Origin: Eledone cirrhosa
Taxonomy: Eukaryota
DNA: 64,000 bases
Assembly: GCA_964016885.1 (NCBI GenBank)
Contig: OZ024742.1
Coordinates: forward strand, 221,092,001 to 221,156,000
Direction of reading: 5' to 3'
Shown: piece by piece, positions 153 to 63,970 of the stretch
How positions within the stretch are numbered: position 1 is the first letter of the stretch
How the letters are laid out: each line of letters opens with the position of its first letter
The notes under the pieces: generated by a model
The model's database searches: none
The model's input: the letters and a program-made list of their open reading frames with translations, nothing else
What the model was told of the DNA's origin: nothing
Made by a program: the position numbers and the translations under genes

Positions 153-3100
153 GTAAGAATTACTTAGTATTCTTCTTTTCATCTATTTCTTTATATCTTC
201 ATCATAATTATCATTTAGCTCCCATTTTCCCTGCTGGTAAAGATTGAACAGGTCTTCACAGACTGTGTTAGTACTTATGCAGGCCTACTGACCTCCAGAC
301 AGGTTGGGTGGTCTGTATCTCATTTATATCATCATCATCGTTTAACATCCATCTTCCACGCTAGCATAGGTTAGACGGTTTTGTTCCATTTGATGCGAGA
401 ATGGTTGGGAGACTGTGTCTCACTTGTACAGAAGTGTCTCTGGCAGGTTTTCTACAGCTGGATGCCCTCCCTAACACCAACCACATTTACAGTGTGGACT
501 GGGAACCTTTTTACCGTGTCTCGACCACCTTACAGTGTGGACTGTTGTGTCATCGACACAGTGGACGGAAAAGGGAGGATGAGGTAGGGTGTGGAGGGTG
601 GGGTGCACATTGGGTTAAGAGGTGCCTACTGACTAGGTTTGTATGCAATGGCAGTCAGGTCTATAATGATGATATAAAAGTTGGTGTTAGGAAGGGCATC
701 CAACGGTAAAAAAAACCTGTCAGTCCTATACGAGCGAGTCACGGTCACCCGACCAATCTTACCTCAAATGGGACAATTCCCGTTTAACCCATTCTAGTGT
801 GGAAGATAGATGTTAAACGATGATGATGATGATATATATATATATATATGTATAGACATAGAATATTCGAAAATATTCTGTATGTTTATAATAAACATTT
901 TGAAGACCTAATCGCTATAGAATAGAATACGTCACGTATTACAATTAGATTCTCGATAAAAGCAAGGGAAGTAATCTACGCGTTTCATTCTTGTTAGAAT
1001 TCATCAGGACTACATATCCAGTGCTTTTATCGAGAATGACACAGCTAGAGACTTATAGAATACTTAGCTGTGTACTGGAACTGGTTTGAAGAGCTCTTTC
1101 AAACCAGTTCCAGTACACAGCTAAGTATTCTATAAGTCTCTAGCTGTGTCATTCTCGATAAAAGCACTGGATATGTAGTCCTGATGAATTCTAACAAGAA
1201 TGAAACGCGTAGATTACTTCCCTTGCTTTTATCGAGAATCTAATTGTAATACGTGACGTATTCTATTCTATAGCGATTAGGTCTTCAAAATGTTTATTAT
1301 AAACATACAGAATATTTTCGAATATTCTATGTCTATACTCACATATATATCGCTATTTCAGAGCATTTATTCCAATTTATATATATATATATAAATATAC
1401 ACACACACACACTAGACTTCCCCAGTTTCTGTCTACCAAATTCACTCAAGGCAATGGTCAGTCAAAAAGTATTATAGAAGATACTTGTACAGGGAGCTAT
1501 GCATTGGTATTGAATTTGAAATGTGGTTGTGAAGAAAACTTAACAACAAAGCTGTTTGTACATAGACTGGTTCTTTATTTTACTGATCCAAGATGAATGA
1601 AAGCTAAAGTTGACATTGGTGGGATTTCAATCCAGAACATTATGCAACAAATATCAGCAAAGTATTTTGACCTATTTATTTACGGTTTGCATTTTATTAT
1701 GTCATGTCTTCCTACAGTACTGTGCACATAAACATCCCAGACCATGTCCAGAGAAAAGCCACTTGACTAATTAGCATAAAGTCACTTACAGATATACTTT
1801 TAGACCTTTGGCTCACAGACATACTGTCTCCTATATTTGCTTTGTGGAGCTATCTGGTGTCAGCTCTTCAGAGCTGGCTAACTGATCTCTTTCTTTCAGA
1901 GCTAGATGGTCTTATGTCACCTCTACTGAAGTATTGTTTCCTCCTTTCATCATTCTTGCTGTGTCCAACCCTGTCAAGCCCTACACTAAAATGATACCCA
2001 GTCCCGAGAATGTTGGCCCTCTGAAATTCTCTCCCTGCTCATATCTTTCCTACAGGTGTTGACTTGTTTAAATGGAATATTAGCAGCATCAATGTCACCT
2101 GTCTCAGAGGGCCTGTGAAAGTCATGGGCACTAACACTTTCTCCTGATCCATCATAATCACCATTTTATGTCTATTTTCCATGCTTAGATGGGTTGTCAC
2201 AATTATATGTTCCATTCTGTCATGATTTCTACAGCTATGCCAGCCACATCACAGCTTGTACCAAATGCATTTTATTGTGGCACCACTTCTACCTCTTTAC
2301 TGGGTGGACTGGGTGCTTTAATCGGAACACCAGCACTACCACTTTACAGGGTGGACTGGGTACTTTTCGTTGTGGCACCAACTAAAAAAATTAATGAATC
2401 TCTAAATAGGTGTCATGTGCAGTTAAATGTGATATTATAAACAGTGATATTACTACAAAAGCAGCTGACCTACTGTTGTTTATTTCAGTAGCTTGAAGTG
2501 TTCAGCTGAAATCCTGCTATAGGATATGGTAGAACAGAGAATAGTATTAACAGTGCCTTGATAATGTTTCATAGAATTATGAGGATAATTAAGCCTTTTA
2601 GTTACAACCAACCTTATAGGAGGACAGTGAGGCATGCACTAGTTTGAATTGTAAAGCAATATATGAAAGTCAGTATTCATAAATTATGTAGGGTCTCCTG
2701 CATCACCATCATTTAATGTCTACTTTCCCTGCTTGCAAGAGTTAGATGGGTCATCAGTAGACCAAGTTGGTACTAAAAAGTGAATGTACTGACCCCCATG
2801 ATAAGCTGGGAACCTACATCTCGCTTATGTTTTATCACCCTACTGAATGCTTAAATGAGCCGGTGACCAGTGACCCACTTATATACAATCCCACACACTA
2901 CTGAGTGCATGCTTAAAGAAAATCAAACATGAATTAATGAATAGTTTAATAATTGGAGAAAATATATAACCAATTATTGAGCTGTCATCTACAGAAAGAC
3001 TTTTGGTTATAGTACAAAGTGGGAGAAAGAAGCAGAGAGAGAGTGGGAGATGGTAATTGTAGAATGAACAAAGAGAATGCTAAGTATCCCTAAGTTAAAA

Positions 3101-6100
3101 GTGTCTATTATAATAACTATTATATATATTCTTCCTGTTTAACATTACACAGATTATCGTTAATGTATTACATGATATATTGACAGATGTGGACTTTGTT
3201 TGTATTACCATCACCAGGGTAAAAGCAATGTAATGTTCATTGTGGAAGATGCGCTTAGGGAAGCTGGAGAAGGTGTCAAGACAGATGTATATAGTCAGAT
3301 TTCAAAACCAAAGAAGGTGAGAATTCCCTAGAATTTTCTTTTCCATTAGCTCGTAAAAACCAACTAAAGGAGTTGATCTCAGTATAAACATACTGTGTAT
3401 GGCTTTATTCTAAATCACGTTATGTTAGTGCTAAGATATCAGTGATATTATTACAACTAAAAATACAGAATGACTAAATGTATGTTTATTATACATAAAC
3501 ATATTGTATGTAGGTTCATACAAGGTTTTATTCTTAATTTTTATGTGTTCTATTCTCTTTGCAGGTGACATTAACCAAACATACCAAGAACATGGGCAAG
3601 TTTAGCTCAGTTACAGTGTCAACTGTTGATGAAGAAGAAGAAGAGATAGAAGCTGTAAGTTGAGTTTACGTTTTTGCTGATATCCTGTAAGAAACCATCT
3701 GTCAGTACAATCACTATGACAGAGGACTGAGCTGACTGGTGATATGTCATAATACATAAGACCTGTCCACTAGTACTAACACTGTGACAGAGATGACACA
3801 GGACTGAGCTGGCTGGTGATATATCATAATACAAAAGACCTGTCCACCAGTACTAACACTGTGACAGATGACACAGGACTGAGCTGACTGGTGATATGTA
3901 ATAATACAAAAGACCTGTCCACTAGTACTAACACTGTGACAGAGATGACACAGGACTGAGCTGGCTGGTGATATATCATAATACAAAAGACCTGTCCACC
4001 AGTACTAACACTGTGACAGATGACACAGGACTGAGCTGACTGGTGATATGTAATAATACAAAAGACCTGTCCACCAGTACTAACACTGTGACAGATGACA
4101 CAGGACTGAACTGGCTGGTGATATATTATAATACAAAAGACCTGTCCATCAGTACAAATATTGCAACAGTAAAGGTCAATAGGGTGAGAGACCAGAGGTT
4201 ACAGTGTTTGACAATCAAATGGAGACATTTTGACTGACCACTTCTCTAGTGCTGGTGCCACAATAAAATGCACCTAGTACACCCTATAAAGTGTTAGTGT
4301 TGGTGCTGTGATAAAATGCATCCATTCCACTCTGTAAAGCGGTAGTGCTGGTGTTAAGAAAAATGCACCCAGTAGATCCTTGGGCTCCCATTTGCATATA
4401 ATAGTGAGAGATGGAGAGGCAGTGAATGAAAAAGAAAGAACATGATAAGACAATTATGTTCACTGTTCTAACTTCACAACTGACTGAGTCATCATCAGTT
4501 TTTACATTAGCTTTTTAATGCTTGCAATGGTCAGGACTGTCTTTTATCATCATACCTCCACTTGTGCAGTCCTTCATCATCTCTGGGAGGTTCAGTGTTT
4601 GGGGTGATTTTTTTTTTTCTTCATTCTGTCACTACAAGTTAATCAAAATTCTATAAAATAATTTATTTCTTCCAGAAAGAAATTGCTGATTCTTATGCTG
4701 CCAATGCTAAAGTTATTGAGAAACAACTGTTGAGGAAAGGAATGAGTAAAAGGAGATTAATGGAACAGGTAAGAATAAAACTTCAGCTGCCTTTGTTTTC
4801 TTATTATCCCCTCTGGAACCCCTCACCTTATTTTCATACCATCATACCCTTCACCTTATTATAATACCCCCATACCCCTCACCTTATTATCACACCCGAT
4901 ACCCCTTACCTTATCATACCCCCATACCTCTCACCTTATTATCACACCACCATACCCCTCACCTTATAATGCCACCATACCCCTTCCCCCACCCCCACAC
5001 CTTATTCCACTTGTCATTGCTCTCCTATTCACTCTCTGAGTCACGCTGCCTTGATTGAACAGAGGTAGAGTAGTGAGTACCCCTTAGTCTTGCATGTCTC
5101 AAGGCAAACTCAATAGCATTGATGCCACGATAAAATGCACCCAGTTCACTCTGTAAAGTGGTAGTGAGCAGCGTGAGTTAATGTCGGGTTAAGAAGACCC
5201 TTTAGTCCTGCAGAACACAACCTTTCTTGTGCTAGTTGCCACAATACAATGCACCCAGTACATGTAAAGTGGTTAGCATTAGGAATGTCATCCAGCTGTA
5301 GAGAACTATTTGGAATCAACTATGGAATTGTTTTCAAACACCACTCCATGACTGATAAATTATTCTGTCAACCATAACAATTCTATATTCTGTTAGATAT
5401 TGGTACTTAGAAGGCCAATTTGGGGTTTAAATAACCCATTGCTCAGTTGAACACCACCACCTGGCACTTGGGTTGTAGACTTAATCCATCACCTAGTTTA
5501 ACACCACCACCTGGCCCTTGGGTTGTAGACTTAATCCACCACCTGGCCTTTGGGTTGTAGACTTAATCCACCACCTGGCCCTTGGGTTGACTTAATCCAC
5601 CACCTGGTCCTTGGGTTGACTTAATCCACCACCTGGTCCTTGGGTTGACTTAATCCACCACCTGGTCCTTGGGTTGTAGACTTGATCCACCACCTGGCTC
5701 TTAGGTTGTAGACTTGATCCACCACCTAATTTAATACCACTACCTGGCCCTTGGGTGGTAGACTTGATCCACCACCACCTAGCCCTTGGGTGGTAGACTT
5801 GATCCACCACCACCACCTGGCCCTTGGGTTGTAAACTTGATCCACCACCTGACCCTTGCGTGGTAGACTTAATCCACCACCACCTGGTCCTTGGGTGGTA
5901 GACTGAATCCATCTCCTAGTTTACCACTACTACCAGTTAGCCCTTGGGTTTTTCTAGCAAGGTCCTCCCTGGGGTAAGAATTTAGACATCTACCAGTCTC
6001 AGACTCCCTGAAAAGGGTCATGGAATGGTAAATTATGTGTTTGTGAGAGGAAGAGGGAAAGATGGTGAGAGAGAGAGAAGATTGGTCTTTTGTTGACATT

Positions 6101-63655: not shown

Positions 63656-63890
63656 ACGATAAATTAACGGAGCCATAGGCCCTCGCCATTCCCTGTAAAT
63701 AATGTGCTCAAAGGAGAAGAAATCCTGAGCTCTTTAAAATACAATATGTTGAAAAGGTAACACACCAGAGAGAGATATACAGTGCGCTATCAATAAAACA
63801 GGGAAAAAAACCACCAGTGTAAGGCAGACTATAGACACGATAATTAAAAATATAAATTAAAGCGTAAATAAATACCTCTATAACTATATA

Positions 63891-63970
63891 ACACACGTAC
63901 AAATCCAAAGAGATGTTTCGCCAGTAATTTGTTAACAGAAATGGAATAACCTCGGTTCATCAGCGTGTGT
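63891..63970 (-). ncRNA. Type I hammerhead ribozyme with longer stems II/III
   Basis: Minus strand: acacacg CTGATGA ... GAAA ca...tg TA cgtgtgt; perfect 7-bp stem I, GUA triplet; first stem II pair mismatched. Confidence 0.62.

Follow-up and report, generated by a model that had tools for sequence, protein, structure and literature searches.

Hammerhead-bearing insertions in (TA)n tracts of the Eledone cirrhosa genome and their probable origin by Penelope-type target-primed reverse transcription

Hammerhead ribozymes mark two kinds of retroelement in metazoans, Penelope-like elements (PLEs) and the non-LTR (long terminal repeat) retrozymes. For PLEs of the Hydra clade an insertion bias towards (TA)n has already been described in nearly all families (PMC8557442, section 11), and PLE tails and inverted copies are published as well (Craig et al. 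2021, PMC8557442). Metazoan non-LTR retrozymes are described as low-GC tandems of 170-400 nt without an open reading frame (ORF), with one type I hammerhead per unit and a structured monomer, in genomes where PLEs coexist; their circular RNA has been demonstrated (Cervera & de la Pena 2020, PMC7229834). Li, Clavereau & Pollet (bioRxiv 10.64898/2026.07.22.740005) conclude that PLE machinery mobilises retrozymes, on evidence of co-occurrence and homology of pseudo-LTRs (pLTRs), mainly in vertebrates, and discuss arrays as growing locally after insertion. Here we analyse 64,000 nt of the genome of Eledone cirrhosa (assembly GCA_964016885.1, contig OZ024742.1, positions 221,092,001 to 221,156,000), hereafter the window, and arrive at the same conclusion. 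Seven hammerhead motifs in the window belong to five insertions, two truncated ends of coding PLEs and three retrozymes, all probably inserted by Penelope-type target-primed reverse transcription (TPRT) into (TA)n. Unlike in the preprint, the insertion ends themselves carry a PLE signature and point to arrays made at insertion.

A biochemical parallel is offered by Poseidon, a PLE of Anolis carolinensis, whose protein in vitro uses two internal start sites for its reverse transcriptase (RT) and cuts and extends both target strands (Frangieh et al. 2024, PMC11167929). As reported there, and as found here, two start sites downstream of the hammerhead define a tail and the target is AT-rich; Poseidon differs in its clade, in start sites that lie inside the ORF and in the lack of target homology. 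The words inverted, tail and microsatellite were not found in the main text of PMC7229834, nor were inverted arms, tails or start sites in that of Li, Clavereau & Pollet, and the main text of an Octopus vulgaris repeat annotation makes no mention of a ribozyme. Neither these families nor this end pattern for retrozymes was found in the literature, with supplements, most subscription journals and Repbase/Dfam outside the scope.

The first-pass annotation of the window, made from its letters alone, had listed seven hammerheads of the Penelope or retrozyme kind in at least three families, each upstream of a (TA)n tract. All seven are present where it had placed them, on the same strands, and their type I character and spread over several families are borne out. 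A type I descriptor, written after the motifs were seen and permitting a U3-A8 core, matched the window eight times, at the seven motifs and at a weak extra site, while 100 block-wise dinucleotide shuffles of the window gave a mean of 0.14 matches and a maximum of 1. The extra site, at 32642 on the plus strand, has a UUGAAAA core and no TA tract downstream and is likely a chance match. From cut site to (TA)5 the distance is 48-243 nt, downstream in every case. For the 0.9 kb pair Rfam went no further than a sub-threshold HH9 match (23 bits against a gathering score of 52, E 0.32), and it had no hammerhead match for the remaining five motifs, so that none of the seven reaches gathering level; its miRNA matches in the window were rejected as inverted repeats and microsatellites. 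The earlier grouping is corrected to five families in three groups, namely A with C, B40 with B55, and D. Seven motifs do not make seven insertions here but five, because 838-1090/1098-1350 (99% identity) and 55046-55176/55191-55321 (98% identity) are inverted repeats, and each of these two pairs, at 0.9 and 55 kb, consists of the arms of one insertion inverted head to head.

The family A insertion lies between (TA)n targets at 832..849 and 1378..1393. Its inverted arm (838..1090, minus strand) carries the proximal, short start-site end, with a hammerhead at 971-1013 and a predicted cut after 977; its forward arm (1098..1377, plus strand), part of a 310-nt monomer, has a hammerhead at 1175-1217, a predicted cut after GUA at 1211 and the distal, long end, about 26 nt beyond the proximal one. 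The B40 copy (40730..40994, plus strand) is a 5'-truncated pLTR, the 3' end of a coding PLE, with its hammerhead core at 40805 and a predicted cut after 40854, and its distal start-site end runs into a (TA)13 target at 40995..41020. At 55 kb the pLTR of a second coding PLE, B55, forms an inverted arm with the short end (55041..55176, minus strand, predicted cut after 55087) and a forward arm with the long end and a tail of about 90 nt (55191..55395, plus strand, predicted cut after 55280), with (TA)n on either side, at 55024-55037 and 55396-55417. The family C copy (61734..61985, minus strand) is a 5'-truncated piece of a 319-nt monomer with a predicted cut after 61868; it terminates in (TA)9 at 61716-61733, and a short inverted C remnant (61985..62030, plus strand) lies at its 5' junction. 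A reading of its core as degenerate was rejected: UUGAUAA, a U3-A8 swap, is common across the family and therefore not decay; of 61 copies collected, 48 have it, 12 did not match the pattern and 1 is mutated. The family D copy (63655..64000, minus strand) is a piece of a monomer of about 540 nt with a long domain II and a predicted cut after 63898. Its long end lies in (TA)41 at 63573-63654, and about 70 nt more follow past the window end before an inverted short arm that runs into another (TA)n.

The ends of these insertions follow one pattern. Each family has two discrete TA-joined 3' ends, all ending in AT and lying 45-260 nt past the predicted cut: +139/+165 in A, +143/+168 in C, +173/+261 in D, +51/+145 in B40 and +46-55/+146 in B55. 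No insertion end falls at the cut site in any family, and the term ribozyme-processed, used in the first-pass annotation, does not describe the DNA ends. The two fixed ends per family correspond instead to the PLE tail and match the two internal RT start sites seen in vitro (PMC11167929). The tail measures about 90 nt in D, B40 and B55, and 26 nt, with a different architecture, in A and C. A hairpin motif, RCTC...TWGAGYRC, lies just 3' of the start sites and is common to D, B40 and B55; within D it occurs only around +173 and +261, it is found at 0.04% of window positions, and A and C are without it. We regard the motif as a lead to a Hydra-clade partner for D, not as proof.

Family A preserves this record most fully in its two-armed arrays. 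One short and one long end were paired in 22 of 22 two-armed insertions, the other 3 of 25 loci being one-armed. Among the first 100 matches listed, a count by eye gave 10 two-armed arrays, and in each of the 10 the two arms have a single variant; neighbouring arrays differ, the chance of such agreement is about 2.5e-5, and whole units confirm it in five arrays. From the fixed pairing of ends and the single variant per array we infer that one RNA was primed twice, once per target strand, and that the arrays were probably made at insertion from one template and not by later unequal crossover. The template was likely a circle, which fits the long arms best.

The first-pass annotation had taken the 40.8 and 55 kb motifs to be non-coding and had seen no RT or GIY-YIG ORF beside any motif. 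Within the window this stands, since no ORF adjoins any motif in tblastn searches with Hydra-type and Neptune-type ORFs, but elsewhere in the genome B40 and B55 are coding, and their window copies are read as truncated pLTRs of autonomous RT and GIY-YIG elements. The two families are about 78% alike. Our genome searches score the best 40 DNA candidates, and the surveys for partners and ORF links are samples of loci. Copies of B40 have more than 1.5 kb of upstream sequence in common, and RT/GIY-YIG ORF sequence lies on the same strand 1.7-4.0 kb upstream in 12 of 20 extended loci and in the inverted arm at 2 more; no such frame of at least 100 aa was found at the remaining 6. One locus (L330) holds an intact unit of 3,724 bp, with pLTRs at 3274-3534 and 6998-7258, both 94% identical to the 40.8 kb copy, and between them an ATG ORF at 3588-5810 (741 aa) that lies downstream of the B40 start sites. 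For B55, the upstream search over 30 loci found an untranslated region in common and a Hydra-type endonuclease (EN) C-terminus within the 1.5-kb flank in 6 of 30; its ORF is known from that C-terminus only, with motifs CNCRIKSNC and CNLCVEE.

The B40 ORF joins an RT to a C-terminal GIY-YIG EN. It carries RWR at 37, DKT at 120 and LYRDD, and in the linker and C-terminal end CNCRDRSKC (CxCx5C), CDLCAEE and CRH; GxKF/Y and CX2-5CxxC were not found in it. One Cys lies between the GIY and YIG half-sites of the EN, as read from the unaligned ORF. Among the features given for the Hydra clade (PMC8557442) are an RWK-type motif, DKT, a GxKF/Y that is not conserved, a CxCx5C linker that replaces CX2-5CxxC, CxxC and CxH close to the end, and an EN lacking the CCHH motif. 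Relatives of the ORF carry PF26215, and its best named protein match is a hypothetical protein of Argonauta hians, 40% identical. A hammerhead in the pLTR and insertion into (TA)n, as in the Hydra clade, are both found in B40 and B55, and by these motifs we assign them to that clade as two truncated coding PLEs. A Naiad origin, suggested by the TA bias, was rejected, as the EN is C-terminal and hammerheads are present; Naiad PLEs are described with an N-terminal GIY-YIG and no canonical hammerhead. Compared with Hydra-clade PLEs as described in PMC8557442, the unit here is longer (about 3.7 kb against "generally <3 kb", a descriptive and not a diagnostic figure), the tail is about 90 nt against 30-40 bp, and the copy number is high. 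The EN search returned 62,616 first-look candidates, which is not a copy count.

That A, C and D are non-coding, as first proposed, agrees with the structure of their loci, where ORF-less monomers are joined head to tail, with one type I hammerhead per tandem unit. The 310-nt monomer of family A occurs in scattered arrays whose arms hold as many as 13 identical units, and a 31-letter pattern from its hammerhead has 12,756 exact matches in the 3.0-Gb genome against 0 for the control; the family is young and abundant. Family C has a 319-nt monomer, 68% like A over the monomer, and a 14-mer common to the two has 26,029 matches against 1 for its control. The family D monomer measures 538-543 nt. 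GC content is 34-40% in the three families and the longest ATG frame 11-78 aa, and the monomers fold better as circles than 40 shuffles each, with z of -4.2 for A, -6.3 for C and -2.7 and -3.1 for D. At 310-319 nt A and C resemble the retrozymes described in PMC7229834, while D exceeds the range given there and falls inside the 51-972 bp range of the 2026 preprint. By these features A, C and D are classed as non-LTR retrozymes. Circular RNA was demonstrated for the retrozymes of PMC7229834, and the families here are known from genomic sequence.

The microsatellite association seen in the window holds genome-wide, in family loci and in less biased sets. Counts leave out the window's own and overlapping loci, and the family loci were picked by similarity to queries that include the 3' end. 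A (TA)4 follows the element end within 15 nt in 25 of 29 B55, 26 of 29 B40 and 23 of 27 D loci, and within 60 nt in 26 of 26 C loci. The corresponding backgrounds for 15 and 60 nt are 2.2% and 4.7% of window positions, and 11.8% and 20.6% in the fetched loci, which are TA-rich. Among 44 hammerheads of other families met in flanks, (TA)5 lies within 250 nt downstream of 39 and upstream of 20. When 27 arms were taken by pattern in genome order, 16 had TA within 20 nt of the end; 7 others meet TA where the following unit has its short end, a further 2 do so at other distances, and the last 2 stop elsewhere.

The ribozymes differ in architecture between the groups. The A hammerhead has a stem I of 6 bp with a 14-bp extension, a stem II of 5 bp, a palindromic stem III, ACGCGU, and GUA at the predicted cut; that of C has the U3-A8 core, a stem II of 4 bp, a near-palindromic stem III and GUC. 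In B40 and B55 stem I measures 8 bp and stem II is long and interrupted, with a palindromic AUAUAUAU and AUA; D combines a 7-bp stem I and GUA with a 37-nt domain II that pairs weakly. Folded alone, the A and C hammerheads are well below shuffles (z -6.3 and -6.6). A BLAST-collected C-type alignment, built from the window copy and 9 sense-strand, full-length representatives drawn from 26 clusters (antisense, A-type, chimeric or deleted rows left out), has two-sided change in 10 of 25 pairs against 3.8 in shuffles (0/500), and its core 3-8 pair is U-A in 8 rows, C-G in 1 and U-G in 1. In the A/C 3' domain (11 of 14 clusters) 4 of 24 pairs change on both sides. All covariation tests are inflated by related sequences. 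Since the A and C hammerheads are stable and covary, selection on cleavage is implied. The minimal PLE hammerheads described by Cervera & de la Pena (2014, PMC4209133) likewise have a palindromic stem III that implies dimer cleavage, U3-A8 covariation and opposite-strand pairs 100-700 bp apart; unlike those, the U3-A8 core here belongs to a tandem retrozyme whose stem I is long and whose sister subfamilies have C3-G8 and U3-G8.

These observations can be placed in a single scheme. The endonuclease would cut a TA tract on both strands, a dimer of the protein, with one RNA bound, would prime each DNA end at either internal AU-rich start site, and copying would proceed toward the RNA 5' end; two 5'-truncated cDNAs joined head to head would then leave an inverted insertion in which one arm is short and the other tailed. 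In the case of the retrozymes, the hammerhead would cut multimeric transcripts into monomers that are ligated into circles, and the enzyme would make repeated rounds of one circle, so that each arm receives up to 13 identical units at insertion. As the sampled loci held no copy of A, C or D linked to an ORF, their partner enzyme is a proposal; D would likely be served by a Hydra-clade one. More tentatively, and with somewhat less than even confidence, we propose that each array is written once by an RT dimer rolling round one hammerhead-made circle held at two start sites while priming both ends of the TA tract, that D hijacks the Hydra-clade enzyme through the hairpin copied after both start sites, that the ends thus name both enzyme and mechanism for animal retrozymes, and that closed 310-nt contigs from sequencing runs, described below, are that circle.

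Several results weigh against parts of this account. The hammerheads of B40, B55 and D, folded alone, are no better than shuffles (z +0.4 for B40, -1.2 and 0.0 for B55, -0.1 for D), the minimum-energy fold of the isolated sequence is not the hammerhead in any of them, and stem II of the D window copy pairs poorly. The B-type alignment unites the window copy with rows from 17 of 21 clusters, after removal of 4 that were deleted or chimeric; 96% of its cells pair, and two-sided change in 16 cells compares with 6.2 in shuffles, but the 4 pairs that change on both sides do not rise above shuffles (115/500). Pfam gives no family for the 706-aa B40 ORF, and the assignment to the Hydra clade is by motifs and not by a tree. 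The hairpin motif was defined with D in view. The ends share AT microhomology with the target, while the element assayed in vitro needed no homology to start (PMC11167929). No ORF-linked copy of A, C or D turned up in the sampled loci, and homogeneous arrays would also fit a linear multimer transcribed from a homogeneous source array.

This last point leads to a rival that we consider possible though unlikely, in which enzymes and targets are unchanged, the retrozyme template is linear multimeric RNA transcribed from a homogeneous array already in place, and neither hammerhead nor circles have a role in insertion. It draws on the anole PLE, for which hammerhead mutants did not impair insertion in vitro and uncut RNA was the main substrate (PMC11167929), on the Xenopus retrozyme dimers, of which one in nine cleaved (bioRxiv 10.64898/2026.07.22.740005), and on coding B40, which also makes partial tandems. 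However, copying with 5' truncation can make linear multimers shorter but not longer, and arms that hold 10-13 identical units are common; in addition, the A and C hammerheads imply selection on cleavage. We favour a circular template for the retrozymes.

It is improbable that all five families are ends of coding PLEs whose ORF copies were missed because only the best 40 candidates were scored. B40 and B55 looked non-coding in the window and are coding-PLE ends, and D has their tail length and their hairpin motif; against this, monomer runs into monomer in A, C and D without an ORF. No contiguous ORF was found at 19 A loci or at 26 loci taken by 14-mer in genome order, and upstream extension beyond the monomer is not shared among 30 C loci or among the 22 D loci, of 30, that the listing covered. 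Within the fetched loci, no A, C or D hammerhead lies 3' of the other ORFs of Hydra or Neptune type. A Neptune-type fragment that abuts a C copy (L108) was rejected as a coding partner, as it looks like a deletion junction.

Very improbable, in our judgement, is a satellite birth in which A, C and D landed as solo pLTRs, in single units, and grew into tandems later by unequal crossover. Local amplification from PLE termini has been proposed (bioRxiv 10.64898/2026.07.22.740005), and one C locus (L208) has a larger secondary duplication. Both inverted arms are nevertheless multimeric, with one variant, and end at two fixed start sites in (TA)n; the unit contains, in circularly permuted order, sequence from either side of the start sites, more than one truncated unit could have provided, and for family A later growth is already contradicted. 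That the inverted repeats are MITE-like (miniature inverted-repeat transposable element) DNA transposons with incidental hammerheads is scarcely credible: the near-perfect inverted arms and TA flanks suit it, but arm lengths and inner junctions vary freely, the outer ends differ by a fixed tail, the ribozyme stems covary, and the RT link of B40/B55 together with the variable 5' junctions refutes it. Template-written arrays placed by Penelope-type TPRT remain our preferred reading.

Sequencing runs were compared with one family A unit (L033:3892-4201). Runs X4, X5 and X6, which bear three other organism codes and come from three other studies, each gave one contig closed at exactly 310 nt, at a depth of 18-34, with 1-3 differences from the reference unit and without TA junctions; in a fourth run the contig graph branched at the two ends. 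The closed contigs could be circular or multimeric RNA, trace contamination or very recent interspecies spread; none of the listed runs is recorded as RNA, which speaks neither for nor against expression. They are not used as support here because a collapsed tandem from trace DNA would look the same. All three carry A at the stem II base, a minority allele (34 of the first 100 listed units, about 22% of X1 depth). The commoner genomic variant of family A has a U-U mismatch at the stem II base, as one axolotl retrozyme family reportedly does. An assignment of the X1 variants to another species was rejected; they are common variants of this genome.

Hammerheads also occur beyond the five families. 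Flanks of the fetched loci (such as L070:898+, L101, L128, L045, L040, L104 and L072) hold at least 8 further families, nearly all pointing into (TA)n; one lies after a Neptune-type GIY-YIG ORF (L101) and one after another Hydra-type ORF (L045, L205). Another of these families, at L105, L165 and L183, has a UUGAAAA core. At L208 (G000:C3:190370000-190377000) a Hydra-type EN fragment is fused to an inverted C array, in a block repeated three times, and at L307 a C end runs straight into a hammerhead of a different family; both junctions are possibly template switches between element RNAs.

Other repeats share the window. A 150-nt near-perfect hairpin at 27296-27446, with weak Rfam scores as plant miRNA families, is probably an unrelated inverted repeat or MITE. 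Fragments of LINE (long interspersed nuclear element) RT ORFs, which we take by their motifs to be RTE-like, lie at 18271-19082, 28400-30228, 55981-57560 and 59099-60670, with 3' ends that run into (GAT)n and then (TA)n. A dispersed 48-bp minisatellite family occurs in both orientations at 44201-44809, 53850-54871, 8195-8357 and 4247-4374, with a long array also just outside the window (L031:4200 onward). A partial tRNA-like match (31.8 bits) at 7834-7891 on the minus strand is possibly the head of a SINE (short interspersed nuclear element).

The mobilisation of animal retrozymes is still a hypothesis built on co-occurrence and pLTR homology, as the available accounts present it (PMC7229834; bioRxiv 10.64898/2026.07.22.740005). 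The ends of family A would record the reaction itself, with a fixed start site for each of the two target strands and a single template variant for each insertion. Together with intact Hydra-type ORFs and a candidate RNA signal shared with D, they provide a defined set of enzyme, template and target with which rolling-circle target-primed reverse transcription could be tested in vitro for the first time. The elements belong to known classes, the Hydra-type PLEs and the non-LTR retrozymes; their unusually clear ends make the mobilisation model directly testable.

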